Assembly (NCBI GenBank): GCA_016219925.1
Contig: JACRJU010000012.1
Span: 6,723 to 70,722, forward strand
Length of the DNA: 64,000 bases
Direction: 5' to 3'
DNA from: Candidatus Uhrbacteria bacterium
GTDB lineage: Bacteria; Patescibacteriota; Patescibacteriia; UBA9934; GWF2-40-263
Made by a program: the position numbers and the translations under genes. Below the pieces are notes generated by a model that did no database searches, was not told where the DNA came from, and was given only the letters and a program-made list of their open reading frames with translations. Of this stretch, positions 36,804-61,232 are shown piece by piece; position 1 is the stretch's first letter, and the number at the start of each line of letters is the position of its first letter.

Positions 36804-37946
36804 TTATAGCATTGAACGATAAATTTCTCGTGTGCGTTCGCACATGGTCTGAACGTTGAATCGTGATACAACCCTCTCTTGCCCGACTCGACCCATGTGC
36901 GCGCATAGCTTGGGTTCAACAGCGAGCCGTTCAATAGCATCCCGAAGAGCCAGGGGATCATTTGGAGGCACCATAATCCCCGCGTCTGATCCGACAGCCT
37001 CTTTGATTCCTCCGACGTTGCTTGCAATGACGGGAAGGCCTTGGGCCATGGCTTCAAGAATGGAATAGGGCAATCCTTCATAGCGAGTTGGGAGAACGAA
37101 GATATCAGCCATTTTAAGCCTCTCAAGAACTTGCCTGCGAGTGAGGGCCCCTGTCAGTTCAACCTGTTGGTCGAGGCTGAATTCGCGGATGGCTTTTTGG
37201 AGTTCGGGTTTCTGCGGACCATCGCCAATAAAGGTTATTTGGATGCGCTGGCGTATAGAAGGCGGTAAAAACGAGATAGATTTTAAAAGAAGAAACGGAT
37301 CTTTTGGTGGCGCGAGCCGACCGATAAACAAGATATGGCTTTGTGATCCTTCGTCGGCCTGCGGTCTTCTCTGGATGACAGACTGGTTTTTGTCATCCTG
37401 AGCGCTAGCGAAGGATTCCGAGGTTTCGACTCCGTTGTAAACGACAGTCAGTTTTTCTTTTGGCGCGATTCGGTGTGTGCGGGCTAATTGTAAATCATTT
37501 TTTGAAACGCAGATGATCATTGAACAGAAGTGAGCTGTGAGTCTTTCGAGCCATGGAAGTATGACCCGTCGAGAGCGCTTTGTTCCTTGTGTGAAGCTCC
37601 ATCCATGAGCCGTAAAGATCGTTGGAATACGGTTGTTGATGACAAAGCGTCCCAGAAGTCCGGTCATAGTGCTATGACAGGCGACGAGATCAGGCTGATT
37701 GTTTTTAACAGCGGCGAGGAGCAGGCGGGACGCTTTCCATAACCGAAGCGGATTCACGCTATTTGCAAGCCAAGCATTTGGATAAAAAGTTGCTCCAAGC
37801 CGTTTCGTTTCTTCCTCAAGCCAACCACCGGGCGCACTCATGACAGCGACTTGATCACCCTGCGACAGAAAAAACTTTGTGAGTTGAGCCACGTGTGTCT
37901 GGGCTCCTCCTTGTTCGGATTTGGTGATGAAGAAAAAAATTTTCAT
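36804..37946 (-). CDS. glycosyltransferase family 4, with an in-frame insertion of the dispersed repeat in the inter-domain linker
   Basis: 380 aa; MKIFFFITKSEQGGAQTHV N-terminus and EGLPYSILEAMAQGLPVIAS motif; the linker segment ...ESFASAQDDKNQSVIQRRPQADEGS... is encoded by repeat copy 37345-37419. Confidence 0.75.
   Translation of the reverse strand: MKIFFFITKSEQGGAQTHVAQLTKFFLSQGDQVAVMSAPGGWLEEETKRLGATFYPNAWLANSVNPLRLWKASRLLLAAVKNNQPDLVACHSTMTGLLGRFVINNRIPTIFTAHGWSFTQGTKRSRRVILPWLERLTAHFCSMIICVSKNDLQLARTHRIAPKEKLTVVYNGVETSESFASAQDDKNQSVIQRRPQADEGSQSHILFIGRLAPPKDPFLLLKSISFLPPSIRQRIQITFIGDGPQKPELQKAIREFSLDQQVELTGALTRRQVLERLKMADIFVLPTRYEGLPYSILEAMAQGLPVIASNVGGIKEAVGSDAGIMVPPNDPLALRDAIERLAVEPKLCAHMGRVGQERVVSRFNVQTMCERTREIYRSML
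37345..37419. repeat. intragenic copy of the nested-palindromic repeat (outer GATCCTTCG...CGAAGGATC, inner GGATGACA...TGTCATCC)
   Basis: GATCCTTCGtcggcctgcggtcttctctGGATGACAgactggtttttTGTCATCCTGAGCGCTAGCGAAGGATTCC. Confidence 0.5.
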
Positions 37947-37953
37947 ATATCTC

Positions 37954-38027
37954 TGTCATCCTGAGCGCCAGCGAAATATTATAAATACTTCTGTCATCTG
38001 TCATCCTGAGCGCCAGCGAAGGATCAC
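37954..38027. repeat. intergenic tandem half-copies of the same repeat family (TGTCATCCTGAGCGCCAGCGAAA ... TGTCATC-TGTCATCCTGAGCGCCAGCGAAGGATCAC)
   Basis: Direct sequence match to the repeat core; lies between the GT4 start (37946) and the GT2 stop (38031). Confidence 0.5.
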
Positions 38028-38030
38028 GAA

Positions 38031-38855
38031 TTATTGCATGCTCGGATGCTTGTACACGATTTGTCCAAACACGTGCACTCGCGCCCATCGTACGATGCAG
38101 ATCGGTAGGATGATCGCCAAAAATGGCTTGATGAGATGAATCGCGCACCAAAGAGGGTAGTCACCTCTTTTAAGAGCGCGCCAACGCGCTCTGAGGGCAA
38201 AGCGGATTTGTTCCTGCTCGTTTTTGAAAGAGATCATGTGTGTGGTCATCCGTTTTTGCATGAGGATGTCCGGGAGGTTTGCAAAGTGTGCCGTAGATGA
38301 GAGGCGGAGCCACAAATCGTAGTCCTGGGCTTTTTTGAACGTCTCGTCATAGCCGCCTGCACGGTCTAATGTTTTTTTTCGGATCATGATGGAACCGTGC
38401 AAGAACGGATTCGTGCGAATGAGGGTTTTGTGGAGCGTCTGAGAATCAGTTATCACCTGAGGTCTGCCGATGATGCGTCCTTCTGCATCGATCCATTCAA
38501 ATGCCGTGCCGACCATATCGATGTCTGGATGCGTATCAAGAAAGGCGATTTGGTTTGCGAGACGTTCTGGGAGCGCGATATCATCCGCATCCATACGGGC
38601 GACATAGTTACCTGTTGCTTGAGTAAGGGCGCGGTTGAGCGACTTAGTGAGCCCAAGGTTTGTGGAGTTGGTGAGCACGCGGATGCGGTCATCTTGTGCG
38701 GCAAGCTCACGCAGGATTTGAGAGGTCGTATCGGTTGAGCCATCGTCGACGATCAAGAGTTCGAAATCGCGAAAGCTCTGCCTAAGCAAACTCAACACCG
38801 CCTCGCGGATAAAGCGATCGCCGTTGAAGACGCAACAGACAAGAGAAACGCGCAT
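38031..38855 (-). CDS. glycosyltransferase family 2 (GT-A)
   Basis: 274 aa; VSLVCCVFNGDRFIREAV...LLIVDDGSTD...ARMDADD (DxD) motifs. Confidence 0.75.
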   Translation of the reverse strand: MRVSLVCCVFNGDRFIREAVLSLLRQSFRDFELLIVDDGSTDTTSQILRELAAQDDRIRVLTNSTNLGLTKSLNRALTQATGNYVARMDADDIALPERLANQIAFLDTHPDIDMVGTAFEWIDAEGRIIGRPQVITDSQTLHKTLIRTNPFLHGSIMIRKKTLDRAGGYDETFKKAQDYDLWLRLSSTAHFANLPDILMQKRMTTHMISFKNEQEQIRFALRARWRALKRGDYPLWCAIHLIKPFLAIILPICIVRWARVHVFGQIVYKHPSMQ

Positions 38856-38890: not shown

Positions 38891-39772
38891 TCAGTTTCTG
38901 GATTTGAAAAGCCGAAACAGTCGAAGAAGTCTATTTTGCAAGAGATACCACTGATGCTTGAACGCGTGCTGTTTCAGGACACGGAGGATTTTTTTGTTGT
39001 TTTCCTTTTCGAATGTCGTCTGTGTTCCAGGAATCGCAAGAACACTGATTCCACGATCTGTGATAGTTAATGTCGTAACGACAAAATGGGCCTTGCCTAG
39101 GAGTCCAACGATAGTTTTCGGGGTAAACATCATCAAATGGATGCTGGAAAAATAATCCGTGACGGCTCTATCTGCACGCATACCGAAAATATTTGGAACC
39201 TCCAGGAACAAGACCCCTTTTTTGTTCAACCGTGCATGGATGTTTTGTAAAAAGTTTAGCGGATCAGGTACATGCTCCAATATGTGGAGCGCAACAATCA
39301 AATCAAATTTTTCATGATGAAAGGTTCGCTCGCTGAAAAATCCAGTTTGTATATTTAATCCAAAGTAGTCGCGGCTATATTTGGAAAATGGAACAGAAGG
39401 TTCGATACCGAAAACATTCCATCCACATTTTTTGAGTTCATTGAGAAAAATTCCGGATGAGCTTCCTATTTCGAGAGCGTTTTCCCCCTCACCTTCTCCG
39501 TAATTTTTTTTTAGCCAAACGATTTTCGATTGTGCGTCCTCTCTTGATACTCTGAAATACTTTTCTGATGTACTAGTTTCAAATTCGCCTTCAACATAGA
39601 AGCGTTTTAATGCTTCACCATCGGGTTGAGGATTTTGAAACGTAAATCCGCATTCTCTGCAAAGGACATATTGAATTTTTGGGCAAGATAATTTTTTGAT
39701 ATATCGGTCTTTTCCATGTCTCAGGAGTACTTGATAGTTTCCAGAATCACAGATGGGACAATTCATATACAT
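38891..39772 (-). CDS. N-terminal zinc-ribbon + class I SAM-dependent methyltransferase (TylC3-like architecture: putative sugar C-/O-methyltransferase), paralog C
   Basis: CPICDSG...CRECGF zinc ribbon then the SAM motif LEIGSSSGIFL and acidic motif II. Confidence 0.65.
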   Translation of the reverse strand: MYMNCPICDSGNYQVLLRHGKDRYIKKLSCPKIQYVLCRECGFTFQNPQPDGEALKRFYVEGEFETSTSEKYFRVSREDAQSKIVWLKKNYGEGEGENALEIGSSSGIFLNELKKCGWNVFGIEPSVPFSKYSRDYFGLNIQTGFFSERTFHHEKFDLIVALHILEHVPDPLNFLQNIHARLNKKGVLFLEVPNIFGMRADRAVTDYFSSIHLMMFTPKTIVGLLGKAHFVVTTLTITDRGISVLAIPGTQTTFEKENNKKILRVLKQHAFKHQWYLLQNRLLRLFRLFKSRN

Positions 39773-39837: not shown

Positions 39838-40808
39838 TTAAATGATCTTATTTACACGAACACGTTCTCGAAATTGTGCGAGTGCTCGACTGATCCAAGG
39901 CAATCGAGATTTTATCAAGATTTTGGCGGGGATGCTGTTGGCGATGTATCGATAGAGAAAGGTGTCTCGGTCATGCCGTCGTTTATACGAATCGATAAGT
40001 GAGTGAATTGCTTCTGGATCATCTCTGTGTTCTAGAGCGATGGTCTCGCCCGGCTTCGCAAGCACACAGATTCCCCGAGGCACATTGCCGGCCGCGATCA
40101 CCTGGAACCCGTGCTGGGCAAGCAGTCGCTCGAGTGTTCGTACAGAGAATACATAGAGATGAGGCATGGCGAAGAAAGAAGTGTAAAAGCTACTTTTTGG
40201 GTGATAGATGTCTGGGACTTCAATATAAAGCAGGCCCCCAGGTTTCAGAACGTCGGAGATATCATTGAGGATGGTTTCTGGCCGTTCGAGGTGTTCAAGT
40301 GTGTGTGAGAGAATAACAAAGTCGAAAGAGTGCTGTGGAAACATTTCGGTCTGAAAGAGCTTCGTTTGAATATTTTTGAGTCCGTATATATCGCGTGCAG
40401 TCCGAGTCATGTTTTTTGACGCCTCCACCCCGTGACACTCCCAACCCTTGGCTTTGAACCGGGAAAGAAAGGCTCCCGTGTTACAGCCGATGTCCAAGAT
40501 GCTTGCGCCAGGAGTATATATAGGCATGTGCTTCGCAATCCAGTCAAACGAATGGTCGGCGTATTCTTCTTTTTTCTTTTGTATCCATCTGAAACAGCTT
40601 GATCTTCTTTGTCGTAGTAGTCATGTGAGTACAGCGCCTCAATTTCGTGCGCTACAAGCGTCGGATTTTGATAGACAAACCCACACTCAGTACAGATGAC
40701 ATATCGCGTCTCTGTCGTGCCGACATTTTTTCCAAATGGGTCTTGTTTGTTTATGAGCAAGGTTTCGCTGGTTGGGTTCTGACAGATGAGACAAGAAGTG
40801 TATTTCAT
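39838..40808 (-). pseudogene. zinc-ribbon + SAM methyltransferase paralog B, interrupted by a frameshift in an A-run between the Zn-ribbon and MTase domains (or a sequencing error / programmed shift)
   Basis: The Zn-ribbon (MKYTSCLICQ...CTECGFVYQNP) sits at the tail of ORF 40407..41810; the MTase domain (…EEYADHSFDWIAKHMPIYTPGASILDIGCNTGAFL…) continues in the -1/+2 frame; the two frames are reconciled by a 1-nt indel within GGATACAAAAGAAAAAAGAAGAATAC (about 40590-40620). Confidence 0.45.
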
Positions 40809-41810
40809 AGCGTTCGTTTTTTTTGCGATGACGTGCAAGTTGTCTCCCAATCCAACCAAATCGCACAGACGCACAAGAGGAAGCAAGAGGCGGTTCACGG
40901 GCCAATTATTTCGAATGGCTCCTGTGGAAAGAGGAATATGCCAGGCGTCACGTACCCAATATTCGATCGAACCAGACCACCCCTTGGTACTTGAGACCGT
41001 GGAGAGATCAAGGACTTCGTAGCCTTCTTGCTCGAGGAGTGTTCGAAGAACACGTGGAGAGAAAAGCAGGTTGTGTCGTGGGGCATCGAGATTAAACCAA
41101 TAGCTTCGAAATATCTGCGCCGCGAGACTCCAGACATTGGGCATATTCATGTACAGGATACCATCCTTTTTTAGGGCCTGACGGACATGAACGAGAAGGG
41201 TGTGCAGATTGTCGAGGTGTTCGAATACTTGGTTGAGAACAACAGCGTCGAATGTTGGTTCAGACCAATGTTCCTCGATAGAGAAGCCTTGTTGCACATC
41301 CAGTCCAAGAACTCGACTTTGTTGGACCATCTGCGGGGCTGGCTCCAGACCATGCACGTGCCATCCAAGATGCCTTTGTATCAGGAGGAAAGTTCCGGCA
41401 CCACTGCCGACATCCAAAAGTTCCTTCCCCTCTCCTGGGTATTTAAGCGGGGTGGCGCGAAAGAGTTTTGTGTAACGCAGGAGGTTATGAATCCAGCGTG
41501 AGAATATTCCTGCGGCAGGAAGGCCCGCAGGGAGACAAAAAACCTCTTGCCAAATTCGGCGACGAATCTGCATCAGCCATTGAGCGCGAGGAGAGAAAGA
41601 AGGGGATTTTATTGGTGCTTCTGTGTGAGAGATGTAGTGGTCATCGTAGTGTTCCTCGTAGGTGTGAGAGGTCGTTTGAGGATGGAGGAAGATCAAACCA
41701 CACGAGAGACAGCGATAGTATCCAGAGTTGACGAGCGGCTTGTTTCTCAAACGGTCTTGGCCGCGGGTCCAGATCCTCGCATTTTGGTCACGACAGGAAG
41801 GGCACGTCAT
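40407..41810 (-). CDS. zinc-ribbon + class I SAM methyltransferase paralog A, reading without a stop into the Zn-ribbon of paralog B (fusion/stop loss)
   Basis: CPSCRDQ...CLSCGLIF zinc ribbon, LLDVGSGAGTFL SAM motif, then ...HVIAKKTNA directly followed in frame by MKYTSCLICQ (paralog B N-terminus). Confidence 0.55.
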   Translation of the reverse strand: MTCPSCRDQNARIWTRGQDRLRNKPLVNSGYYRCLSCGLIFLHPQTTSHTYEEHYDDHYISHTEAPIKSPSFSPRAQWLMQIRRRIWQEVFCLPAGLPAAGIFSRWIHNLLRYTKLFRATPLKYPGEGKELLDVGSGAGTFLLIQRHLGWHVHGLEPAPQMVQQSRVLGLDVQQGFSIEEHWSEPTFDAVVLNQVFEHLDNLHTLLVHVRQALKKDGILYMNMPNVWSLAAQIFRSYWFNLDAPRHNLLFSPRVLRTLLEQEGYEVLDLSTVSSTKGWSGSIEYWVRDAWHIPLSTGAIRNNWPVNRLLLPLVRLCDLVGLGDNLHVIAKKTNAMKYTSCLICQNPTSETLLINKQDPFGKNVGTTETRYVICTECGFVYQNPTLVAHEIEALYSHDYYDKEDQAVSDGYKRKKKNTPTIRLTGLRSTCLYILLAQASWTSAVTREPFFPGSKPRVGSVTGWRRQKT

Positions 41811-41814
41811 ACAA

Positions 41815-43347
41815 TTATTTTGTGTTCAAGCGTAGCAGACGATCTGTGATACATCCTACAGCATCTTCAGGATAGTTGACGTAGGTTTTAAGAAAAGTGG
41901 GTATGTGTGACCGTATGAGGGTCTGCGTATGTGGGTCGGTCTGCGATTCCAAAGCGAGAGCGAGCTCTTGTGCGTTATGAGCGCTCCACGCGGCTTGTAA
42001 CGTCACCATGTCCATGTCCGCGACTTCGTCGATATTGAGCAAAATGACGGGGATACCCTGAAGAGCCGCTTCCACGTGTAGGGTTGAGGAGGAAGTGATG
42101 AGTACTTCTGGAAGCTCCAAGAGATCATTGATATTCGACGTAGCTGATCGGATGAAGACATCGTGCTCCAGTTTAAGGCCATGATCACGCACAAGGTTCT
42201 CAAAGAAATTTTTGGCGTCGTAGGGACTTTTAGCTGGATGCGGTGTGATGAGGAGTTTCCAGGTCGTAGAGGTACGTGAAGTGAACTGACGATGGGCGTT
42301 GAGCACGAGCATGCATAGCGCCGCATTCTTTGTGAGATCAAAATGTTGACCTGAAAAGAGAATGAAATGTTGATCTGGCAGAGAGAACTGGGCAAGTCGC
42401 TGTTCTCGGTCTCCTTTTTTTGGAGCAGAAAACAGAGGAGTGAGCGCTGGCGATCCCGTGATGGTGATCCTATTTTCGTCCACGCCGTGATTCACAAAGT
42501 ACTGTTTTGCGCACGATCCCCAGACAAACAGCGAGGAGACAATCGAAGGGGTGTTCACAACTAGATTTTTTGTGGTTTCGTTGGTCACGCCATGTTGGAT
42601 CAAGATTGTGCGGAGATGTTGTTGTTTCGCGCGGGTCAGTATCAGACGTTCGAATGGATGCATTTCTGTCGCTGAAATAACCACCATATCTTCATGGAGT
42701 TCAGTTTTGAGAGCGGCCTCTATTTGGAGGAACCGAGGGGCGTGAAAGAGTAGTTGGCAGAGTGGTTCAAGCATCTGGATTCGTTTTTTCGATGAGAGAA
42801 GCTTGATGGTAGTTTGCCCGAGCATACACAATAGCGACCAAACTTGTTTGAGTGGAACGGATCCTTTTGTAAGATTCACGCAAGGAAGTTTTGGATACCG
42901 GCTCTGCAGGGCTCTGCATTGTCCTGCATCAAAGGTAAATACGCAGACCTTCTCTCCCCGCTCGCTGAGTGATTGGACGACTGGATCGAGTGTTTTCGCG
43001 ATCGCTCCATAGGGAGCATGTTTGGCCAAGAGGAAGGCAAACGTGCGACCTCGAGGATGGTTCAACGGTTCTGCATTTTCTGTGCGTACGCACAGATGTG
43101 CACACTTCCAGAGAGCCGCAACGAGAGATCGAATCAATCGACACCAGGGTCCTCGTTCATTTCCAGACTCGCGACCTTCGCACATCGATAAAAAAACAGG
43201 CAACCGAAGTAGCCCACCATAAGAAATTCCGTTGTGAAGCGTGAGGTCTTTTCCATCCTCGAGGAACCAGTGGTCGGCGAATTCTAGACTCCAGGAGGCG
43301 GTCGCCTGTCGTGTTGATGCATCAAAAGTGGGGATTCTAGGCGTCAT
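41815..43347 (-). CDS. hypothetical GT-B-like capsule/teichoic-type polysaccharide biosynthesis protein (possible CDP-glycerol glycerophosphotransferase-, KpsC- or sialyltransferase-like transferase)
   Basis: 510 aa; C-terminal half with a Rossmann-like pattern (HGVTNET...ITGSP...LITPHP...) reminiscent of the TagF/capsule-biosynthesis families; assignment is weak. Confidence 0.35.
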   Translation of the reverse strand: MTPRIPTFDASTRQATASWSLEFADHWFLEDGKDLTLHNGISYGGLLRLPVFLSMCEGRESGNERGPWCRLIRSLVAALWKCAHLCVRTENAEPLNHPRGRTFAFLLAKHAPYGAIAKTLDPVVQSLSERGEKVCVFTFDAGQCRALQSRYPKLPCVNLTKGSVPLKQVWSLLCMLGQTTIKLLSSKKRIQMLEPLCQLLFHAPRFLQIEAALKTELHEDMVVISATEMHPFERLILTRAKQQHLRTILIQHGVTNETTKNLVVNTPSIVSSLFVWGSCAKQYFVNHGVDENRITITGSPALTPLFSAPKKGDREQRLAQFSLPDQHFILFSGQHFDLTKNAALCMLVLNAHRQFTSRTSTTWKLLITPHPAKSPYDAKNFFENLVRDHGLKLEHDVFIRSATSNINDLLELPEVLITSSSTLHVEAALQGIPVILLNIDEVADMDMVTLQAAWSAHNAQELALALESQTDPHTQTLIRSHIPTFLKTYVNYPEDAVGCITDRLLRLNTK

Positions 43348-43351: not shown

Positions 43352-44053
43352 CTAAAGTGTCACGTATCGGTCGTTCCACTCTGCCAAGATGAGCTCCGCT
43401 AAGCGAAGTTCGTCCTGTGTATGGATGTCCACGGTCATATTGAGATCATCAAATTCGTGAATGCACACATGGGGACCCAGTCGTTCGCCTTGGGCCATGT
43501 AGGTGGCTTTCGTACAGGTGATGAGTCCACTATAACAGATGTAGATTTGATCGGGCTTGAGTTGGCGTACGGTGAATCCACTGTCCAGACGTTGGAGACC
43601 TTCCATCGTTCGTCTCCAAACGGACTTATGTTCACGCACGCCACTGATGACTGAATCGAATCCACCTAAGAGCATCGCATCAATGGCTTCGTCCAAAAAA
43701 GCAGGTGGTCGCACAGGCCGTGTCGGATCGACAAAACAGATGTACTCGATGGAGGGGTCTTGTTCTAGGAGGATATTGGTCATATAGGCGAATGTATCCT
43801 CAAGGCGAATGTGATCCTGTGTGAGGGTTTCCGGAAGCAAACAAGGAATTTCGGCTCCATACGAAGCAGCGATATCCGCAATTTGTGAGTCATCCGTGGC
43901 GACAATAATACGCCCAATCCGATTGGATCTTTTTGCAGCAGCGATCGCGTACGCAATGAGAGGATGACCATGAAGGGATTGAAGGTTCTTTTTCATCAGA
44001 CCTTTTGAACCACCTCGGGCCGGGACGATCGCAACAATATTTGGAGTCTTCAT
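43352..44053 (-). CDS. acylneuraminate (nonulosonate/CMP-Kdo-type) cytidylyltransferase
   Basis: 233 aa; N-terminal IVAIVPARGGSKGLMKKN motif and the C-terminal dimerisation region typical of NeuA/KdsB-family CMP-sugar synthetases. Confidence 0.75.
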   Translation of the reverse strand: MKTPNIVAIVPARGGSKGLMKKNLQSLHGHPLIAYAIAAAKRSNRIGRIIVATDDSQIADIAASYGAEIPCLLPETLTQDHIRLEDTFAYMTNILLEQDPSIEYICFVDPTRPVRPPAFLDEAIDAMLLGGFDSVISGVREHKSVWRRTMEGLQRLDSGFTVRQLKPDQIYICYSGLITCTKATYMAQGERLGPHVCIHEFDDLNMTVDIHTQDELRLAELILAEWNDRYVTL

Positions 44054-46382: not shown

Positions 46383-46391
46383 AGCATGTGG

Positions 46392-47306: not shown

Positions 47307-47309
47307 AGG

Positions 47310-54814: not shown

Positions 54815-55864
54815 CTAGTTAAACCAAGAAAGCCATGTGAGTTTCAGTCGCATGTTGAATTGTCGGGAAGTAAGAAAGAGCCGGTGAGATCGTTGGGGGA
54901 GGAGGTCTGTTTTTTGAGAAATGAGTTGTTCGAACAGGTGTATATAGTCATGACACATCGCTTCGCTTGAAAAAGGATATCGTTCAAGTTGTTGTGTATA
55001 GAAGTCGTAGTTGTTGAGAAGGTTTGTAAGGCTTACTTCGACATCTTTTGGTCCCTCAAAGCCAACCCCATAGTCCTGGCAGTACTCTGGTAGGGCGCCG
55101 CTTATACGGAATAAGATCGGCAAACCGCACAATGTGGCTTCGATGTGGTGCATCCCCGCCGGCTCGTTAAGAGAGGCAGAGATATACACGTCATGTCGGT
55201 GGAGCTCTTGTGCAAGCTCGGCTCCCGACAGGGGAGGAATGACATGGATGGCCTTGAGGGGGGTCTTCGCGGGGACATTTCCGATATACGTGAATTCGAG
55301 TTGTTCGCCGAGGTTGGTTGTGGCGAGCAAGTGGTCAAGGTGCATGTAGACATCCCATCCCTTGTTCCAGTTCGCGCTCCAGTGGTGTGTGACCAGTCGA
55401 ATTTTTCGGTCCATTGGGAGGTGTTTTTTTTGATAGGTAAAGATCGAACGATCGCCTCCATTTTTTATCACAGAGATGTTCTTTGTGAAGGGATTTTGTT
55501 TTCGGTGTAGCTGTTCAAGCCAGGCAGAGATAAAGATGGTGTGGTCCATGATTTCGTTCGCGGCAGAGAGCAGTCGATTAAGACGGTGGGTTCCTTTGCG
55601 TTCATCACATTCGTTTACTCGCTGGACGAGCAGAACCGATGGGTTGATGTCGTGGACATAACGCATGATCTGGAGCGGACCGAAAGCAACGGACGACAGG
55701 GATGTCCGCGGATCCGTCATGAGAATAAGATCAAGGTCCGGTTGATGCAGGTCAAAGAACACCTCATGGCCATGCTCGCGCAGGTATTGGGTGAGGAGTT
55801 TACCGAACTGGTTTCCCCCTCCAAACGCTCCTTCTTGGATGTGCATGCCGATAGCAATCTTCAT
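54815..55864 (-). CDS. glycosyltransferase family 4-like
   Basis: 349 aa; MKIAIGMH... N-terminus, NEPAGMHHIEATLCGLPIL motif. Confidence 0.6.
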   Translation of the reverse strand: MKIAIGMHIQEGAFGGGNQFGKLLTQYLREHGHEVFFDLHQPDLDLILMTDPRTSLSSVAFGPLQIMRYVHDINPSVLLVQRVNECDERKGTHRLNRLLSAANEIMDHTIFISAWLEQLHRKQNPFTKNISVIKNGGDRSIFTYQKKHLPMDRKIRLVTHHWSANWNKGWDVYMHLDHLLATTNLGEQLEFTYIGNVPAKTPLKAIHVIPPLSGAELAQELHRHDVYISASLNEPAGMHHIEATLCGLPILFRISGALPEYCQDYGVGFEGPKDVEVSLTNLLNNYDFYTQQLERYPFSSEAMCHDYIHLFEQLISQKTDLLPQRSHRLFLTSRQFNMRLKLTWLSWFN

Positions 55865-56916
55865 ACGTATAAAGATTCAGAATATCGTCGGGCGATTTTT
55901 TTCCAATCAAAGGAGGGGATACCCGCTAAGGCATGCGAGACCAGTCGATTGCGTAGACCCGCATCTTTCAGGAGATGCTGCACGACTTGTGATAGTCCAA
56001 GGCTATCCGTTGCGGCCAGGAGAACGGTTTCCATATTGACCGCGATATCTGACACCATTCCCACACGCGTGGATACGACCGGCACACCACTGGCCCAAGC
56101 TTCAAGCAAGGATTTTGGACCACCCTCCAGACGCGACGTAATGAGGTAGAGATCCAGCGTATGATACATCATCGGTAACTGTGTTGTGTCTTGCAGATAG
56201 GTATGGATGTAGTCAATCTCGAGCTCGTCGAGTCGGTGTTTCACATATCCACGTGCTGGACCTGTGAGGAGAATGAGTGGACGGCGGTCTTTCAGTCGAG
56301 CGATCGTTTCAACCAGGACGTCAGGGCCTTTGATGAGTTTGGGTTCAAGCCCCTCGCCCCACCCCACTCCATCTTTTTGAAATGATCCAATAACGAGACG
56401 ATCAGGATCAATTCCGAGACGTTTACGTATTTCGCGTTTTTGTTCCTGGATTACAGGAGTAAACAATGTTGTATCGACTCCCAGAGGAATGACGACGACT
56501 TTGTGCTCGTCAATTCCCGCCGCCACGAGCGTTTGTTTCGTGGATTCGCAGGAGGTGTGGATGACGTCGACTTCTTGTTGCACTTGGGCGAGTCGCTCCA
56601 GTCGTGGGTCTCCCTCTTCTACGTGGAACCAGGTGAGGACGATGCGATTAGATGGATGGGGACGGTTCCAGCCAGTCTTGGTGAAGAACGTGTTGATAGA
56701 GCCAAAGTGTACGATCTGGTTTTCAATGAGACACGGGCAATAGGTGATACGCGCGCGGATGAGACCTTGTTGATTTAGAGCGTGCGTGATCGATTCACCA
56801 TCATGTTTGATCGACCAATCGTATGTCTCAACGATGTAGGCCAACGTGAATCCGCGCCATCCTGAAGTCAGATTGCCGATGATGCCTGTTAGTCGAAGGA
56901 GAATACGTTTGATCAT
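55861..56916 (-). CDS. glycosyltransferase family 4
   Basis: 351 aa; EGGPKSLLEAWASGVPVVSTRVG motif. Confidence 0.75.
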   Translation of the reverse strand: MIKRILLRLTGIIGNLTSGWRGFTLAYIVETYDWSIKHDGESITHALNQQGLIRARITYCPCLIENQIVHFGSINTFFTKTGWNRPHPSNRIVLTWFHVEEGDPRLERLAQVQQEVDVIHTSCESTKQTLVAAGIDEHKVVVIPLGVDTTLFTPVIQEQKREIRKRLGIDPDRLVIGSFQKDGVGWGEGLEPKLIKGPDVLVETIARLKDRRPLILLTGPARGYVKHRLDELEIDYIHTYLQDTTQLPMMYHTLDLYLITSRLEGGPKSLLEAWASGVPVVSTRVGMVSDIAVNMETVLLAATDSLGLSQVVQHLLKDAGLRNRLVSHALAGIPSFDWKKIARRYSESLYV

Positions 56917-57569
56917 GTGTTGGTTGTGACCACGACCGCCCAGATTTCGCCAAACTGAATCGAGGAAGACGCTACGGCGAATCCCGCTTCCTGAAGTTCG
57001 ACCATGAAGCCCGAAAATATGTACTCGGTGAAGTGAGTCGTGTCTAGCCGATATTCGATCCCCAGTTCTTTTTTGTAGAGCGTGATCCAGTCGCGGTCGA
57101 TCATGGGAACGCGAATAAGGAAGAGGGGGGCGAGGTGTTTGATTTTCGACAGAAACTCGACGCGATGTTCGATGTGTTCCAACACGTTTGAGAGGACAAC
57201 GACATCAAATTGTTCGTGGGGCGAAAAGGTCGTCGCATCTTCCACGCGATATGTGAGGTTCTCACGGGCGAACCGATTTGTCCACGCCTCTTGGTTTTTT
57301 GCGTTTAGGTCGATCCCAACGACATGACTCGCTTTGCCTGCTAGGTCATAGGCGAGCGCTCCGTTCCCGCACCCGATATCCAGAACGCGGTCGCTTGAAC
57401 GAACGTGATCGAGGAAAAACTGGTGGTAATTCATCAGCCGATGTTTGGGATGCAAGCCCCCCTCGGTCTTGATGGCGAGGTGGCTTGCAAGTCGGTAACT
57501 GAAGCTGTGGAACCTCAGGGCGAGACGGACGAGGATTTTTTGCATACGAGAAGCAACATATGGCCACAA
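56913..57569 (-). CDS. class I SAM-dependent methyltransferase
   Basis: 218 aa; VLDIGCGNGALAYDLAG, GIDLN, VVLSNVLEHI motifs. Confidence 0.75.
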   Translation of the reverse strand: MWPYVASRMQKILVRLALRFHSFSYRLASHLAIKTEGGLHPKHRLMNYHQFFLDHVRSSDRVLDIGCGNGALAYDLAGKASHVVGIDLNAKNQEAWTNRFARENLTYRVEDATTFSPHEQFDVVVLSNVLEHIEHRVEFLSKIKHLAPLFLIRVPMIDRDWITLYKKELGIEYRLDTTHFTEYIFSGFMVELQEAGFAVASSSIQFGEIWAVVVTTNT

Positions 57570-58321
57570 AGACGAGAGAAGAAAATGGTGAACAGATATC
57601 GGATGGCACGGGCGGATGCTGAACGGCTGTTGTACAGTTTTTGGAGCGGGAGATGGAGGAACGCGATTTCATCCTTGATTCCTTTAAGAGCATCGTAGGG
57701 GTAAGACTCCGCACATGCAAATCCTTGCGTTTCCAGCTCACGAACGACTCGCTCCTTGTCCAGCATAAACTCGTAGAAGGTTGTGGGGTCAGTGGAAGAG
57801 TCAAAGCGTGGGTACAATCCGAAGTGTGCCTTCATTCGACGCAGAGGAGACATCCAGGGGAATGTGAGAAAGAGCGTGCCGGCAGGCTTTAAGACACGGT
57901 GGGCCTCCTTCGTAATCGGAGCGAATCCGTCCCAAAAGTGTTCGATGACGCCCAAGGACCAGTATCCATCAAAAAAGGCGTTGGGAAATGTTGTTGCCCG
58001 AACATCTTGGGCGGAGACTTGGAGAGAGGGGACCAACGCATTGGTTGTTGCAATGGCCTGTTGTGCGTAGTCGACTCCGCATGCGTCGTAGCCCCAGGAT
58101 CTCATCGCGAAGACGACCTGTCCGGTTCCACACCCACCTTCAAGAATGCGCCCACCGGAAGAGAGGTATTTTTTGGTGAAGCGCTCGATGAAGTGGTGTG
58201 TCTTTCCAGAAGAGATATTTTTTTTAAGATCCTTTTGGTTCCATTGTTCATCCCAAGATTCAGGCGTCGCTTCCCGCTGGAATAAAGCAAGTCGTTTGTT
58301 GGTTGGGTCGTAGGCGATCAT
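57515..58321 (-). CDS. class I SAM-dependent methyltransferase
   Basis: 268 aa; ILEGGCGTGQVVFAM, GVDYAQ, LGVIEHF motifs. Confidence 0.75.
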   Translation of the reverse strand: MIAYDPTNKRLALFQREATPESWDEQWNQKDLKKNISSGKTHHFIERFTKKYLSSGGRILEGGCGTGQVVFAMRSWGYDACGVDYAQQAIATTNALVPSLQVSAQDVRATTFPNAFFDGYWSLGVIEHFWDGFAPITKEAHRVLKPAGTLFLTFPWMSPLRRMKAHFGLYPRFDSSTDPTTFYEFMLDKERVVRELETQGFACAESYPYDALKGIKDEIAFLHLPLQKLYNSRSASARAIRYLFTIFFSRLCGHMLLLVCKKSSSVSP

Positions 58322-59448
58322 ATATCATAAAGGGAGACTTCCGTTTGAATGGCTCGTTCAAGTGAGGCGTAGCCAACGATGAATTCATGCGCCGTCATCC
58401 CAAGCTTGGCTCGTTGAGCCGGATCAGCAAGAAGACTTGTGATCGCCTGTCGGATGGACGAGGAATTCGTCTCGCATAACACACCGGTTTTCCCATCCTC
58501 AATGAGAGAGGCAATCCCCTCGACGTTCGTACCGATTACAGGGAGTCCACAAGCCATCGCCTCTAAGAGGGCTTTGGGGTTGCCCTCGTGAAGAGAGGGG
58601 AGGACAAAGAGTTCACACGTATTGAGTGCCTCAGGAAGCTGTTCGTTTGGGATATTCCCGCGGAAGCTCGCGTGGACCCCGAGTCGTTGTGCTTGTTGTT
58701 CGAGCGTCATTCGTAAAGGGCCGTCGCCATACAGTACTAAGTGGATGTTCGTTCCCTGGAGTGACTCGATAAGGTTCGTGAGGTTTTTTTCAGGTGAGAG
58801 CCTTCCCACGAAGCACACACGGTCGTTTTCTTTTTTGATGTCCGTGAAGGGGCGGAAGTGTTCTGAATCGACGTAGTTTGGGATCACATGGACCTTTTGC
58901 CCAGGGATTTGGTACCGGCGGACGATGTAGTCTGCCGCCGCTCGTGTCGTTACAATGACGATCCGTGCCGCGCGGTAGACCCAAGCCTCGATCCATTCGA
59001 TCATCAGTCGTTTAGAATAACGGGAGTATTTTTGCTTATGGAATAACGACCACTGATATCCCGCACGGACGATGAGGGGTTTGCGGAAAAACCAATGTGT
59101 GAGAAGGGCAGGGATGGCGCCAGCGACTTGATGGATGCGGATGACGTCGGCATGTTTCAGAGTGCGCCAGTAAACGAAGGGGAGAAGTGTGCCGTAGAGA
59201 AGATTTGGAACGGGGAATTGTTTGGGAAAAATTTTTATGTGACCACGAAGTCGGTCGACGTAGCGATGATCGTTGCGTCCGTAAGTAAAGAACCAAACTT
59301 CGCCAACGCGAGCGGCGAGCTCCTCATAAAATCGGACCTCACGCGAAAACATTCCGCGCTTCTCCCAAAGCTCGAGAGAAACGCCGTGCGTGAAAAAGAC
59401 TGCGAGCGTGCGTTTAGGTGTGTGTGTCATGTGGGGCTGGGGCGTCAC
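58318..59448 (-). CDS. glycosyltransferase family 4
   Basis: 376 aa; EGNPKALLEAMACGLPVIGTNVEG motif. Confidence 0.8.
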   Translation of the reverse strand: MTPQPHMTHTPKRTLAVFFTHGVSLELWEKRGMFSREVRFYEELAARVGEVWFFTYGRNDHRYVDRLRGHIKIFPKQFPVPNLLYGTLLPFVYWRTLKHADVIRIHQVAGAIPALLTHWFFRKPLIVRAGYQWSLFHKQKYSRYSKRLMIEWIEAWVYRAARIVIVTTRAAADYIVRRYQIPGQKVHVIPNYVDSEHFRPFTDIKKENDRVCFVGRLSPEKNLTNLIESLQGTNIHLVLYGDGPLRMTLEQQAQRLGVHASFRGNIPNEQLPEALNTCELFVLPSLHEGNPKALLEAMACGLPVIGTNVEGIASLIEDGKTGVLCETNSSSIRQAITSLLADPAQRAKLGMTAHEFIVGYASLERAIQTEVSLYDI

Positions 59449-60268
59449 GGTGTTCCATCTCTACCAAACTTGAGTTGTTTTCAATTATCTCCTGAAGGAA
59501 TCGTGGGTTGTAGCCCTTGCTTTTGGCCGCCTGCACGAGGGCCAGAATGTCCTTAGGCAGGCATTTTCCTTTGAATCCCCGGTCGCTTGGGAACACGGCC
59601 GTATGCATCCGCTCGACGCGTGGATCCAGGAGCCAACCCTCTCGCACCGCGTACCAGTCCGCCCCGAGAGCCTGGCAGATGTTGTACATCTCGTTGATAA
59701 AGGTGAGCTTGATCGCGAAGTAGGTGTTCTCCATGTACTTGATGACTTCTGCGGAGAGGCTTGTTGTTTTGAAGTAGGTTTTGGTCGGCCCAAGGATTGG
59801 GATGAGCAAATCGAAGTAGTCATTGCAATCTTGGTCGCTTCCACCCGCGATCACAAACGGCACCTCCTTCATGTTATTGTTGAAGAACGGATTGTAGTAC
59901 TTGCTCTCCCCCACGTATTCGGGTGAGAACACAAGCCGCTTCCCGCTCTTCGTGCGCAGTTCATCGGTGGTGCCGGGTGTCACCGTTGATTTTATGACGA
60001 TAAGCTGACTATTCAAGTTTTCCAATGTCCTTTCGACGAGTGAGACATCACAACTTCCATCTTCCGCTTGTGGTGTTGGGACGCAAATTGCGCTCAGGCA
60101 GCAATCTTCAAATCCATTTAGTGAGTTTGTAAAGGTGATGTTCCCTTGATTGTGTTCTGGTGTGTAGGCAGGATCATAGATCATCACGTCATAGTGATTT
60201 TTCACCATATTGACGAAAGCCTTTCCGACGTAGCCGTAACCAATCACGGCGATTTTTTTCTGTGGCAT
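59414..60268 (-). CDS. UDP-glucose/GDP-mannose dehydrogenase-family protein, short form lacking the canonical C-terminal UDP-binding domain
   Basis: 284 aa; N-terminal Rossmann KIAVIGYGYVGKAF, catalytic GKCLPKD (Cys) in the central domain, then the protein ends; overlaps the next gene by 35 nt. Confidence 0.65.
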   Translation of the reverse strand: MPQKKIAVIGYGYVGKAFVNMVKNHYDVMIYDPAYTPEHNQGNITFTNSLNGFEDCCLSAICVPTPQAEDGSCDVSLVERTLENLNSQLIVIKSTVTPGTTDELRTKSGKRLVFSPEYVGESKYYNPFFNNNMKEVPFVIAGGSDQDCNDYFDLLIPILGPTKTYFKTTSLSAEVIKYMENTYFAIKLTFINEMYNICQALGADWYAVREGWLLDPRVERMHTAVFPSDRGFKGKCLPKDILALVQAAKSKGYNPRFLQEIIENNSSLVEMEHRDAPAPHDTHT

Positions 60269-60269
60269 A

Positions 60270-61232
60270 TTATATTTTGTAGTATTCTTTATACCACTTT
60301 ACAAACCGTTCGATCCCTTCTTTAAGTCCTACGCGTGGTTCCCACCCAAGCAGCGCGCGAGCACGAGAATTGTCAGCATAGGTTCGTATGACGTCGCCCG
60401 GCTGCATCGGCAGGAATTTTTTTTGTGCTTCTTTCTGACAGCATTGTTCGATGAATTCGATACATTCCATGAGAGCATTTGGATTGCCTTGGCCCAGATT
60501 GATAATTTCCCACGGCAAGTTTTTTTCGAATGCTTTGACCGTTCCGTCTACGATGTCATCGATATAAGTGAAATCACGTTCCGTTTGTCCGTGGCCATAA
60601 ATATCAATGGTTTCCCCATTCAGGACTTGATGCGTGAATTTGAAAATGGCCATATCAGGCCGACCCCACGGACCGTACACTGTGAAGTAGCGCAGACAAG
60701 TGATCGGGATGTTGTAGAGGTGGTGATACGAGTGTGCAATCGCTTCGAGGCTTTTTTTAGTCGCTCCGTAAAGAGAGATCGGCATGTCGGTCGAGTCTTC
60801 TTCACTCACGGGGTAGCGTTTTGCATTCCCATAGACCGACGAGCTCGATGCGACGGTCATGCCTTTGACACCAAATTTTTTGGCGAGTTCAAAAAGATTG
60901 ATCGATCCGACCAGATTTGAATCGGAGTAGAGAAACGGATTTTCCATGGAATAACGCACTCCGGCTTGGGCCGCCAGATGGATGATATGATCTATGCGAT
61001 GCTCTTGGAAGATATCACCGAGAGCGTCATAATTTTTGATATCAAGGCGGTAGACTCGGTAGTCTCCTTCAAGCAAGCGATTGATTCTCGCTTCTTTTAA
61101 AGAGGGTTCGTAGTAATCATTGAAATTATCGACAATAATGACTCTATGTCCGGCCTCTAGGAGTTTTTTTGCGGTATGAACACCAATAAAACCAGCTCCT
61201 CCAGTTACAAGAATCGTTTTGGTTTCGGGCAT
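60270..61232 (-). CDS. NAD-dependent NDP-sugar epimerase (UDP-glucuronate/UDP-glucose 4-epimerase family, SDR extended)
   Basis: 320 aa; TGGAGFIG, the YxxxK region (YGATKKSLE) and the C-terminal substrate domain. Confidence 0.85.
   Translation of the reverse strand: MPETKTILVTGGAGFIGVHTAKKLLEAGHRVIIVDNFNDYYEPSLKEARINRLLEGDYRVYRLDIKNYDALGDIFQEHRIDHIIHLAAQAGVRYSMENPFLYSDSNLVGSINLFELAKKFGVKGMTVASSSSVYGNAKRYPVSEEDSTDMPISLYGATKKSLEAIAHSYHHLYNIPITCLRYFTVYGPWGRPDMAIFKFTHQVLNGETIDIYGHGQTERDFTYIDDIVDGTVKAFEKNLPWEIINLGQGNPNALMECIEFIEQCCQKEAQKKFLPMQPGDVIRTYADNSRARALLGWEPRVGLKEGIERFVKWYKEYYKI

Follow-up and report, generated by a model that had tools for sequence, protein, structure and literature searches.

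What would a bacterium of the Candidate Phyla Radiation (CPR) assemble with 24 consecutive genes in which glycosyltransferases and methyltransferases surround enzymes named 3-deoxy-7-phosphoheptulonate synthase and shikimate dehydrogenase? These genes lie at positions 36,804–61,232 of a 64,000-nucleotide stretch of contig JACRJU010000012.1 (assembly GCA_016219925.1, Candidatus Uhrbacteria bacterium), and we refer to the whole of this stretch as the window. Judging from gene content, we consider it probable, as one overall explanation, that the region is a single co-directional operon and that it assembles a polyprenyl-phosphate-linked, methyl-decorated hetero-oligosaccharide of about ten sugars, which would include a cytidine monophosphate (CMP)-activated ulosonic acid similar to 3-deoxy-D-manno-octulosonic acid (Kdo).

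ORF calling gives 24 open reading frames (ORFs) in this interval, all co-directional on the minus strand and joined mostly by 4-nt overlaps or by gaps of 1–9 nt; overlaps of 35–55 nt between ORFs are an artefact of over-extended ORF starts. The original prediction, made from the sequence alone, was of about 23 genes with gaps of 60 nt or less. The compact single-strand unit stands, although the count is 24 and the gap limit is slightly exceeded twice, the widest gaps being 84 nt (GT4f/GT2), 65 nt (MT7/MT6), 57 nt (Gfo/ABC exporter) and 35 nt. Internal terminators or promoters that would split the locus, which the prediction had named as a reason to give it up, are not in excess over shuffled sequence in consensus-only scans, which may not suit CPR promoters: the counts of terminator-like and σ70-promoter-like sites are 17 against 21.3 ± 5.5 and 20 against 20.6 ± 5.1, and 12 against 14.4 and 13 against 12.6. 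A gene for the CCA-adding enzyme (35447–36769, minus strand) follows 34 nt downstream of the operon on the same strand, as it also does in one related genome, so transcription may well run on past 36,804.

The CPR-type host that had been suspected agrees with the exact matches found at NCBI for eight of ten proteins (MBI53700xx, "Candidatus Uhrbacteria bacterium", locus tags HZA85_), and the Logan assembly of SRR12113407 also matches. At 90% identity the proteins form clusters of one or two members (seven of the eight are singletons and the remaining one is a pair), which, with their origin in an Uhrbacteria metagenome-assembled genome (MAG), indicates that the locus is not the known O-antigen cluster that was raised at the outset as a possible disproof.

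Families were assigned by scanning the ORFs with Pfam and NCBIfam profiles at curated cutoffs. The DAHPS-like, AroE-like and Gfo/Idh/MocA trio that had been noticed from the letters is borne out by matches to DAHP_synth_1, Shikimate_dh_N and GFO_IDH_MocA, and is followed by two genes with cytidylyltransferase-related domains:

47310–48380, minus strand: Gfo/Idh/MocA oxidoreductase, module gene 1 (GFO_IDH_MocA N- and C-terminal domains)
46392–47306, minus strand: AroE-like oxidoreductase, module gene 2 (Shikimate_dh_N, 3.7e-19)
45456–46382, minus strand: DAHPS-like enzyme, module gene 3 (DAHP_synth_1, PF00793, 4.7e-38, 131 bits)
44050–45459, minus strand: GT2CT, a GT2 glycosyltransferase (GT) fused to a degenerate cytidylyltransferase-like (CT) domain, 469 aa, module gene 4 (Glycos_transf_2, 3.2e-25)
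43352–44053, minus strand: CMPT, a NeuA/PseF/KdsB-family cytidylyltransferase, 233 aa, module gene 5 (CTP_transf_3, PF02348, 7.5e-20, 72.1 bits against a cutoff of 22.6)

The DAHPS-like enzyme shares its TIM-barrel family, about 40% identity and the metal site with type Iβ DAH7PS (1zco from Pyrococcus furiosus, 1vs1 from Aeropyrum pernix and 1rzm from Thermotoga maritima). The metal ligands Cys44, His243, Glu/Asp269 (D269 in the window protein) and Asp280 are retained in the alignment to 1zco and 1vs1 and in 120 homologues. In contrast to type Iβ DAH7PS, it lies in a glycan and not an aro context, and it stays below the cutoffs of all NCBIfam DAHPS models (PRK08673, 258.8 against 335; TIGR01361, 221.9 against 267.75; PRK12595, 187 against 279), as well as those for KdsA (PRK05198, 72 against 242; TIGR01362, 66.9 against 314). 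Among PDB chains, DAH7PS scores 171 bits and KDO8PS at most 45. The proteins of about 308 aa to which it belongs form a distinct subfamily, whose members share 57–88% identity; the matches that come next in a scan of GTDB genomes, canonical type Iβ DAHPS, reach no more than 44%. Its active-site motifs differ from the canonical ones as follows, from the alignment to 1zco and 1vs1 together with the column statistics of the 120 homologues:

GGAFKPRTSPY becomes the KPLTF form, after which about 33 residues are inserted
GARNxQN becomes GYR(H/S)MFN (GYRS in the window protein)
KRG becomes KRH(Y)GES
ERGIRTFE becomes ERGVxxPHTH
DPSHxxGRR becomes DPSHSTFKR

At the position of the phosphate motif, where 1zco and 1vs1 have KPRTSPY, KPLTF is invariant or nearly so in the 120 homologues, which also share AWVDP, and KPLTFPYG can serve as the signature of the subfamily. 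In DAH7PS the phosphate of erythrose 4-phosphate is bound by the Arg and the Ser/Thr of KPR(S/T); that Leu and Phe invariably stand in place of these two residues suggests an aldose partner without a phosphate. Leu75, Phe77, Tyr79, Tyr152, His176 and His210/212 are candidates for filling the former phosphate pocket. The subfamily is hosted by Uhrbacteria, Parcubacteria, Staskawiczbacteria, Saccharibacteria, Omnitrophota, Margulisiibacteriota, Thermodesulfobacteriota, Victivallales and the cultured Desulfovibrio mangrovi (orthologue N1030_13710).

The AroE-like protein also scores below its family model (TIGR00507, 180.3 bits against a cutoff of 200.2). Its catalytic motifs PHK and NTDG are kept, and the first substrate Ser is replaced by Ala (HPSKGARSP against HPVEHSFSP). 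The PDB relatives include the 5-ketofructose reductase 7cok, which by analogy offers a precedent for an enzyme of the shikimate dehydrogenase family acting on a free keto-sugar. The Gfo protein scores highest in NCBIfam with IolG (116 bits; cutoff, 355).

To place these genes in context, ORFs were called in 51 sequences (50 loci, designated by L numbers, and the operon region of the window) and labelled by BLAST against reference proteins. The ORF caller mislabelled L007, L115 and the CMPT of L006, and absences were checked by tblastn or precomputed Pfam; the counts are thus lower bounds. Of about 45 loci with the DAHPS-like gene, 33 non-redundant ones extend at least 2.2 kb beyond its upstream side. 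In these the pair directly upstream is Gfo and AroE-like in 13, and in 19 it is a non-homologous pair, an AP_endonuc_2 protein (xylose-isomerase-like TIM barrel, 6.4e-41) and a KduI/IolB-family cupin (5.1e-60); one locus has neither complete pair. GT2CT (about 450 aa) and a stand-alone CTP_transf_3 protein (about 235 aa) stand beside the DAHPS-like gene in most flanked loci, usually just downstream of it.

The DAHPS-like, AroE-like and Gfo genes are most likely, on this comparative reading, part of an undescribed five-gene module and not a shikimate fragment. That they are a remnant or partial shikimate pathway, present in a glycan operon by chance, is hardly credible. This is what the NCBI names 3-deoxy-7-phosphoheptulonate synthase and shikimate dehydrogenase would imply, and Pfam membership agrees with them. 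But both proteins fall short of the NCBIfam equivalog cutoffs, the phosphate-binding motif is lost in the DAHPS-like enzyme, and the AroE-like and Gfo genes are exchanged for the other pair in 19 of the 33 loci while the cytidylyltransferase partners stay. In addition, none of aroB, aroD, aroK, aroA and aroC was found among the Pfam-scanned ORFs of the window or in the annotated module loci. If these genes belong to the module, the DAHPS and shikimate dehydrogenase annotations on this contig are therefore no sign of aromatic amino-acid synthesis.

The net effect of either upstream pair could be to epimerise or isomerise a free sugar or sugar acid. AroE canonically acts on quinate and shikimate, and KduI on 2-keto-3-deoxy acids; the resemblance of these substrates to 3-deoxy-ulosonates favours a tailoring step after the condensation. 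The ketose 3-epimerases and aldose–ketose isomerases of the AP_endonuc_2 and cupin families favour instead the supply of the aldose before it.

The CMPT carries the nucleotide-binding motif IVPARGGSKGLMKKN at residues 9–23 (of the IVPARGGSKG...KKN type), and its top NCBIfam match is PseF (102 bits against a cutoff of 205.7). The C-terminal half of GT2CT is homologous to the adjacent CMPT (4e-14), its family profile matches NeuA structures in the PDB at 9e-12, and PF02348 is found in 11 of 14 family members. In the GT2 half the window protein has SAH where GT2 enzymes usually have DxD, and GT2CT may be a dedicated transferase, a nucleoside diphosphate (NDP)-sugar hydrolase or a scaffold. Both of the cytidylyltransferase domains that had been predicted are thus NeuA-related, but PARGGSKG is kept only in the stand-alone one.

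Pfam scans detected neither NeuB nor KdsA in the operon, and the window DAHPS-like protein itself has no match to PF03102 (NeuB), which leaves the DAHPS-like enzyme as the only possible source of the CMPT substrate. A gene similar to GT30 Kdo transferases (PF04413, 9.6e-30) directly follows CMPT in five loci (L010, 10393–11718; L102; L107; L109; L110), which points to a Kdo-like 3-deoxy-2-ulosonic acid. The CMP-activated ulosonic-type sugar implied in the original prediction is strengthened by the conserved module and by these neighbours. In four other loci a B12-binding radical-SAM gene, possibly a C-methylase, lies next to the cytidylyltransferase (L095, 5596–6969; L096; L104; L106). The module is found beside NeuB and Maf-type (flagellin glycosylation) genes in Margulisiibacteriota, and beside NeuB and other glycan genes in Desulfovibrio mangrovi, where a separate Hexapep gene is inserted among the module genes. 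A phosphatase is not conserved in the module in the annotated or surveyed loci.

The loss of the phosphate-binding residues, together with the lack of a conserved phosphatase and the two interchangeable enzyme pairs, fits a NeuB-like logic carried out on a DAHPS fold. As a tentative proposal, quite possible in our view but somewhat short of probable, the KPLTFPYG subfamily would be a third bacterial class of ulosonic-acid synthases beside KdsA and NeuB. It would condense phosphoenolpyruvate (PEP) with an unphosphorylated (perhaps deoxy or uronic) aldose, and the resulting acid would be distinct from Kdo and from the known nonulosonic acids. Either pair would supply or tailor the aldose, GT2CT would assist in installing the product after its activation with CMP, and the module would have spread horizontally through at least eight phyla into loci of the flagellin, lipopolysaccharide (LPS) and S-layer type. 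As specific products, 3-deoxy-lyxo-heptulosaric acid (Dha) and 3-deoxy-arabino-heptulosonic acid (DAH) were considered and dropped, since nothing tested supports any particular chain length.

It seems quite unlikely to us that the module yields an already known acid, Kdo or DAH, along the classical phosphorylated route, in which arabinose 5-phosphate or erythrose 4-phosphate is condensed with PEP and dephosphorylated, with the phosphatase and isomerase encoded elsewhere and the signature due to lineage drift. The fold and metal ligands of the condensing enzyme are indeed those of DAH7PS and KDO8PS, the CMPT is related to KdsB as well as NeuA, and the GT30-like genes accompany the module in the five loci given above. 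However, selection is a better explanation than drift for KPLTF and the other motif changes, since they vary little or not at all in 120 sequences drawn from many phyla, and the subfamily is sharply set apart from the canonical enzymes. Neither a phosphatase nor a KdsD-like gene is conserved, two other enzymes being conserved instead. Gram-negative hosts such as Omnitrophota and Desulfovibrio normally already have KdsA and KdsB for LPS, which also weighs against the classical route.

With the known CMP-Kdo pathway (KdsD, KdsA, KdsC, KdsB and the GT30 WaaA) the module shares a PEP-condensing enzyme of the DAHP_synth_1/KDO8PS fold followed by a CTP_transf_3 enzyme, and the GT30-like gene in the loci mentioned. 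It differs in that the condensing enzyme resembles type Iβ DAHPS more than KdsA (171 against 45 bits to PDB chains), has KPLTF in place of KANRS/KPRS, and is accompanied not by a KdsC-type phosphatase and KdsD but by Gfo and AroE-like or AP_endonuc_2 and KduI, and by GT2CT. The host here is a CPR bacterium, and CPR bacteria are not known to make LPS. The nonulosonic pathways (NeuC/NeuB/NeuA; Pse, Leg) follow the same proposed logic of a free aldose condensed with PEP, without a phosphatase and with CMP activation. The best NCBIfam match of the CMPT is PseF, and a NeuC-related GT-B/Epimerase_2-like protein (unk510, below) adjoins it. In contrast to them, the condensing enzyme is not NeuB and the operon has no aminotransferase or acetyltransferase, which makes a 5,7-diamino sugar unlikely. 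The module is apparently an undescribed variant of the Kdo and nonulosonic-acid pathways. Searches of open-access full text gave no description of a DAHPS-like and cytidylyltransferase module or of ulosonic acids in CPR bacteria, and an account in a subscription journal is possible.

The same architecture is found in four other Patescibacteria genomes or contigs, L005 (GCA_023246355.1), L006, L130 and L131, with DAHPS-like proteins 71–88% identical to that of the window. The block that is kept comprises Gfo, AroE-like, DAHPS-like, GT2CT, CMPT, unk510 (503–510 aa) and two Zn-ribbon methyltransferases, with GT2, GT4 and further methyltransferase genes around it, and the number and order of the glycosyltransferases and methyltransferases vary between the five operons. 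An ABC exporter is kept in L005 (where a GT4 is fused to it and the short dehydrogenase-like gene described below is absent), in L006 and in L130, which also has a Wzy_C/TPR gene inside the orthologous operon. In L131 a Wzx-type Polysacc_synt gene takes the place of the exporter.

The decoration of the glycan would be the task of the methyltransferases (MTases), which are of class I and S-adenosylmethionine (SAM)-dependent:

57515–58321, minus strand: MT1, class I SAM methyltransferase (Methyltransf_11, 4.9e-15)
56913–57569, minus strand: MT2, class I SAM methyltransferase (Methyltransf_23, 1.2e-15)
53035–53781, minus strand: MT3, class I SAM methyltransferase (Methyltransf_11, 8.2e-24)
52427–53038, minus strand: MT4, probable methyltransferase, weak (Methyltransf_23, 1.1e-07; no NCBIfam match)
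40407–41810, minus strand: MT5, Zn-ribbon and class I methyltransferase, ORF of 467 aa (Methyltransf_23, 9.7e-22)
39838–40527, minus strand: MT6, methyltransferase domain (Methyltransf_23, 1.7e-27)
38891–39772, minus strand: MT7, Zn-ribbon and class I methyltransferase in a low-GC patch (0.40), with CPICDS...CRECGF motifs (Methyltransf_23, 4.9e-21)

The seven methyltransferases originally counted are present as seven class I ORFs, including the three tandem Zn-ribbon ones, but one of them is frameshifted and one is weak. All seven match only generic class I families in Pfam, and none reaches the curated cutoff of a specific NCBIfam family, whether rRNA, ubiquinone, another substrate or a sugar O-methyltransferase; the assignment to rRNA or ubiquinone substrates that would have spoken against a glycan role was thus not found. 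MT3 comes to 84 bits with UbiG, under the cutoff of 103. Its nearest PDB chains are phosphoethanolamine N-methyltransferases (1.4e-18), in an alignment limited to the SAM core, and the D-glucose O-methyltransferase 6uv6 is a distant match behind them (2e-7).

That the methyl groups are placed on sugars, as O- or C-methyl, is suggested by the genomic context. We regard it as unlikely that the enzymes act on non-sugar substituents (phosphoethanolamine to phosphocholine, amino groups, carboxyl methyl esters) and that the glycan is not rich in methyl ethers. The closest solved relatives of MT3 and the lack of any score above a sugar O-methyltransferase cutoff would agree with such a role, and carboxyl groups would be available on the acidic ulosonate and possibly on uronic acids. 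In contrast, the MTase genes are interleaved with glycosyltransferase genes and translationally coupled to them by 4-nt overlaps, the pairing of methyltransferase and glycosyltransferase recurs in unrelated glycan loci (L129, L132, L133), and no phosphoethanolamine transferase gene was seen in the operon.

MT6 is split by a frameshift near 40566–40582 that separates its Zn-ribbon from the methyltransferase domain. The MT5 ORF, with CxxC...CxxC pairs at residues 3–6/34–37 and 342–345/374–377, has no stop codon at the end of MT5 and continues in frame into the N-terminal Zn-ribbon of MT6. The L005 orthologues of MT5 and MT6 are two separate genes (335 and 325 aa), and in a tblastn search with the L005 MT6 orthologue residues 1–81 align in one frame and 77–325 in another. 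MT6 is in frame in L005, L006 and L130, and an independent Logan assembly (L001) is split as in the window. Two independent Patescibacteria genomes, the window and L131, are shifted at one codon position (KK/EEYA): the window requires a −1 shift, and its 0-frame reads A_AAA_AAG, a dnaX-type slippery heptamer (window 40560–40590), while L131 (15778–15795) requires a +1 shift at AAG AAA G GAG GAG. A homopolymer assembly error in the A6 run was considered and rejected, the A6G being identical in the in-frame L005 orthologue and the difference arising just upstream; the shift of L131 at the same codon in the opposite direction further weakens it. Phase variation, recoding and decay are each possible.

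The remaining genes of the operon are those for sugar precursors, glycosyltransferases and export, with two unusual proteins:

60270–61232, minus strand: NDP-sugar epimerase/dehydratase of the short-chain dehydrogenase/reductase (SDR) family, 320 aa, first gene of the operon (Epimerase, 5.6e-59; GDP_Man_Dehyd, 1.9e-60)
59414–60268, minus strand: short UDP-glucose/GDP-mannose-dehydrogenase (UGDH)-like protein, 284 aa (UDPG_MGDP_dh central domain, 1.1e-24; N-terminal domain, 9e-15)
58318–59448, minus strand: GT4a glycosyltransferase (Glycos_transf_1, 5.9e-38; Glyco_transf_4, 9.5e-17)
55861–56916, minus strand: GT4b glycosyltransferase (Glycos_transf_1, 4.5e-16)
54815–55864, minus strand: GT4c, weakly GT4-like (Glycos_transf_1, 5.3e-07, 29.8 bits against a cutoff of 26.4)
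53735–54808, minus strand: GT4d, in a low-GC patch (0.40 against 0.50 for the window; Glycos_transf_1, 3.3e-23)
51294–52430, minus strand: GT4e, weakly GT4-like, partner of the toroid protein (Glyco_trans_1_4, 1.2e-10)
50221–51297, minus strand: α/α-toroid protein, 358 aa (AlphaFold2 model, pLDDT 92.3, pTM 0.91)
48438–50216, minus strand: ABC exporter with fused transmembrane and nucleotide-binding domains (ABC_tran, 2.8e-35)
41815–43347, minus strand: unk510, a GT-B/Epimerase_2-like protein of 510 aa (no Pfam match; AlphaFold2 model, pLDDT 86.8, GT-B-type fold)
38031–38855, minus strand: GT2 glycosyltransferase (Glycos_transf_2, 3.3e-33)
36804–37946, minus strand: GT4f, last glycan gene (Glycos_transf_1, 2.9e-35; Glyco_transf_4, 7.4e-26)

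With the GT-B-fold protein, the six GT4 (two of them weak) and two GT2 found by Pfam give the roughly nine glycosyltransferases expected for a single glycan operon, and they agree with the five to six GT4 and two GT2, one fused to a cytidylyltransferase, that had been read from the sequence; the NDP-sugar epimerase is likewise recovered, as the SDR gene. GT4c has an orthologue in L006 at 70% identity. Top NCBIfam matches are below cutoff for the stand-alone GT2 (EpsE-like, 154 bits) and for the SDR protein (GalE, 196 bits against 262). The UDP-sugar dehydrogenase-like gene is right in its family and in its catalytic Cys (GKCLPKD, with a GYGYVG Rossmann motif of the GxGxxG type), but the protein lacks the C-terminal UDP-binding domain and may oxidise a substrate other than a UDP-sugar. 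The reading as a truncated pseudogene was rejected, given the intact N-terminus and catalytic Cys and the recurrence of short forms (250–284 aa) elsewhere, usually directly upstream of an SDR epimerase/dehydratase (L008, 1953–2804 and 6306–7112; L012, 1483–2289; L087, 4535–5287; L114, 4577–5431) and fused to the SDR in L098 (1–1776). The ABC exporter is a candidate flippase for a lipid-linked oligosaccharide. The predicted MsbA/PglK resemblance holds for the exporter class, which also includes HepA, but not at the equivalog level, all NCBIfam scores being under cutoff (HepA, 297 against 725; MsbA, 271 against 602; PglK, 223.6 against 1000).

The toroid protein, foreseen as a QW-motif toroid, has QxxDGxW/F repeats and a modelled α/α toroid. 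Its Prenyltrans match in Pfam is sub-threshold (20.2 bits against a cutoff of 26.5), and its Foldseek matches are weak (prenyltransferase β-subunits, squalene-hopene cyclase and GH88, with E of at least 2e-3 and TM of at most 0.5). A PDB sequence search gave no significant match for it or for unk510. Among its 756 homologues, those in the window, L006, L129, L131, L132 and L133 are directly preceded by a GT4 gene, with a 4-nt overlap in the window, L129, L132 and L133, whereas the calls for L006 leave 5 nt between the two genes. A Zn-ribbon methyltransferase is the preceding gene in L005 and L130. The three contexts examined outside Patescibacteria are all glycan loci with class I MTases nearby: the PglB/STT3 N-glycosylation locus of Hydrogenimonas thermophila (L129) and, for L132 and L133, glycan loci of Arcobacter arenosus and a Sedimentisphaerales MAG. 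In these three the GT4–toroid pair is adjoined by a class I MTase and a GT4a-like gene (L129, 6574–12231; L132, 5915–10906; L133, 6106–10938), the MTase lying after the toroid gene in L132 and probably in L133 (an ORF without Pfam match), and upstream of the GT4 pair in L129. The occurrence of this submodule in Campylobacterota, including the PglB locus, and in Planctomycetota-related MAGs indicates that it spreads independently of the ulosonate module. By its conserved context the toroid protein appears to be an uncharacterised component of glycan assembly and a partner of GT4.

For unk510, NCBIfam gives weak matches to TIGR04326 and to the BFO_1060 glycosyltransferase family, which we take to be named after a locus tag of Tannerella forsythia. 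It has only 11 homologues, and the four with a named source are from Patescibacteria or Uhrbacteria. PF02350 is present in eight of the 11, in one case together with PF05159 (KpsC/S) and PF04464. Its Foldseek matches include the hydrolysing NeuC and the glycosyltransferases MshA and WaaG, and its model makes it a candidate NeuC-like (hydrolysing) NDP-sugar epimerase. In all five Patescibacteria operons it directly follows CMPT, which leans towards a transferase for the CMP-sugar.

Around the operon lie the genes that could start the glycan and deliver it:

61298–63325, plus strand: membrane protein of 675 aa with Wzy_C and TPR domains, transcribed away from the operon (Wzy_C, 2.7e-14, 53.6 bits, cutoff 31.7; TPR_19)
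63405–64000, plus strand: second Wzy_C-type paralogue, which runs off the window (38% identity over 192 aa to the first, E 9e-32)
34095–35441, plus strand: polyprenyl glycosylphosphotransferase (PGT), convergent with the operon (Bac_transf, 3.9e-64; TIGR03025, 304.3 against a cutoff of 295.55)

The pair of divergent Wzy_C/TPR genes described at the outset is thus confirmed as paralogues (61298–63325 and from about 63405), and the first protein is a candidate ligase, O-oligosaccharyltransferase or polymerase; what it has in common with protein O-oligosaccharyltransferases of the PglL/PilO type is the Wzy_C domain. The start of the PGT ORF overlaps a tRNA (34030–34103), and its true start is therefore probably further downstream. 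A PGT, a flippase-type exporter and a Wzy_C-family protein in one neighbourhood make up a set for polyprenyl-phosphate-linked assembly.

In the pathway that we propose, the PGT would start the chain on a lipid carrier, the six GT4, one or two GT2 and the GT-B-fold enzyme would extend it, and six or seven class I methyltransferases would decorate it. The MsbA/PglK-like exporter would then flip the glycan across the membrane, and on the outer face the two divergent Wzy_C/TPR proteins would transfer or polymerise it, onto a protein (S-layer or pilin) or a wall acceptor. The module at 43352–48380 would make one building block, a CMP-activated, Kdo-like 3-deoxy-2-ulosonic acid: the DAHPS-fold enzyme would condense PEP with an aldose, probably not phosphorylated; the Gfo and AroE-like enzymes would supply or tailor the sugar by oxidation and reduction, with net epimerisation or isomerisation; the NeuA/PseF-like CMPT would make the CMP-sugar; and GT2CT would handle it, as a transferase or a hydrolase. 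We infer the identity of substrates and product, the order of the reactions, the methyl acceptors and the final acceptor. The methylated surface glycan with an acidic sugar that had been foretold for this locus is thus supported by the gene content, with the place of the methyl groups read from context.

Wzy-type polymerisation of repeats could instead yield a capsule, an exopolysaccharide or a wall-linked secondary polymer, and not an oligosaccharide moved en bloc to proteins, a possibility that we rather doubt. Wzy_C (PF04932) is common to polymerases, ligases and O-oligosaccharyltransferases, the PGT matches the EPS_sugtrans subfamily, the top NCBIfam match of the exporter, HepA, is a polysaccharide exporter, and Wzx replaces the exporter in L131. 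On the other hand, the scanned ORFs of the window include neither a chain-length regulator (Wzz/PCP) nor an LCP ligase, the toroid/GT4 submodule has a counterpart in a PglB N-glycosylation locus, and at least nine different glycosyltransferases fit a long non-repeating oligosaccharide like the Tannerella decasaccharide; none of these objections to a polymer is decisive.

Several observations weigh against the explanation of the locus as one pathway for a lipid-linked, methylated oligosaccharide with an ulosonic acid. The GC content of the genes in the operon region ranges from 0.38 to 0.54, with low-GC patches at GT4d–MT3–MT4, at MT7 and at the Wzy genes, so that the operon is a patchwork; such a GC mosaic, combined with variable gene content, is typical of surface-glycan loci that evolve fast. 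The PGT and the Wzy_C proteins are encoded outside the operon and are linked to it by proximity, except in L130. No MTase is tied to a sugar substrate in the Pfam, NCBIfam and PDB comparisons. Within the module, the loss of the phosphate-binding Arg and Ser is deduced from motif comparison and from the role of KPR(S/T) in DAH7PS structures, dephosphorylation could be left to a housekeeping phosphatase encoded elsewhere in the genome, and the fused CT domain of the window GT2CT is degenerate, with PARGGSKG absent (the family consensus at this position is IPVKG). Finally, unk510 is structurally closest in Foldseek to UDP-GlcNAc 2-epimerases (8e-12) and not to known ulosonate transferases.

As a whole, the gene cluster is a further member of the lipid-linked surface-glycan loci, whose closest analogues are the Tannerella O-glycosylation cluster and the Campylobacterota pgl loci. 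The T. forsythia locus has methyltransferases and is not known to have as many as seven, and its glycan carries methyl groups. It combines several glycosyltransferases with a CMP-ulosonic (Pse/Leg) pathway, for a decasaccharide on S-layer and other proteins (PMC6120980, PMC5420450), and to that extent resembles the present operon in holding glycosyltransferases and a CMP-ulosonic acid pathway in one locus. The phylum and the ulosonic chemistry are different, and here an ABC exporter and Wzy_C/TPR candidate transferases are present. With the Campylobacterota pgl loci, represented by the PglB/STT3 locus of H. thermophila, the window shares the GT4–toroid–GT4 submodule with adjacent class I MTases (the toroid proteins are 42% identical and GT4a 37%), and PglK-type flippases are of the same exporter class. 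In contrast, the window has Wzy_C/TPR and not STT3/PglB, and the Hydrogenimonas locus is without the ulosonate module.

Elsewhere in the window, a second glycan cluster occupies 3455–12937 on the minus strand, with the following genes:

11357–12937, minus strand: Bac_transf PGT, whose ORF start overlaps the RNase P RNA gene (12840–13297), so that the real start must lie further in
7934–11301, minus strand: three GT4 glycosyltransferases
5272–7947, minus strand: DUF4012 protein, 891 aa
3455–5275, minus strand: DUF11-repeat protein

A high-GC island at 14000–18900 (0.62–0.67 against about 0.50) encodes a Metalloenzyme-superfamily protein, an aldehyde dehydrogenase of 791 aa and a DeoC/LacD-family aldolase, and looks like a horizontally acquired pentose/deoxyribose salvage block. 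At 25231–26514 a T4SS_pilin-domain protein of 427 aa is encoded next to a DsbA-like thioredoxin protein; it is possibly a surface appendage protein and could be a target of glycosylation.

These findings point to a likely systematic misannotation, in that the "DAHP synthase" and "shikimate dehydrogenase" of this module in CPR and other MAGs should not be taken to mean a partial aromatic pathway. The KPLTFPYG signature and the five-gene context define a testable candidate pathway for a CMP-activated acidic sugar in many uncultured lineages and in the cultured D. mangrovi, and two further conserved, uncharacterised proteins of glycan assembly are flagged, the toroid partner of GT4 and the short UGDH-like protein that goes with an SDR. 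CPR bacteria are known for small genomes, and this one would spend about 24 kb, besides another glycan cluster within these 64 kb, on an elaborate surface glycan that evolves fast and is decorated with methyl groups, which would be relevant to how episymbionts present themselves to hosts and phages.

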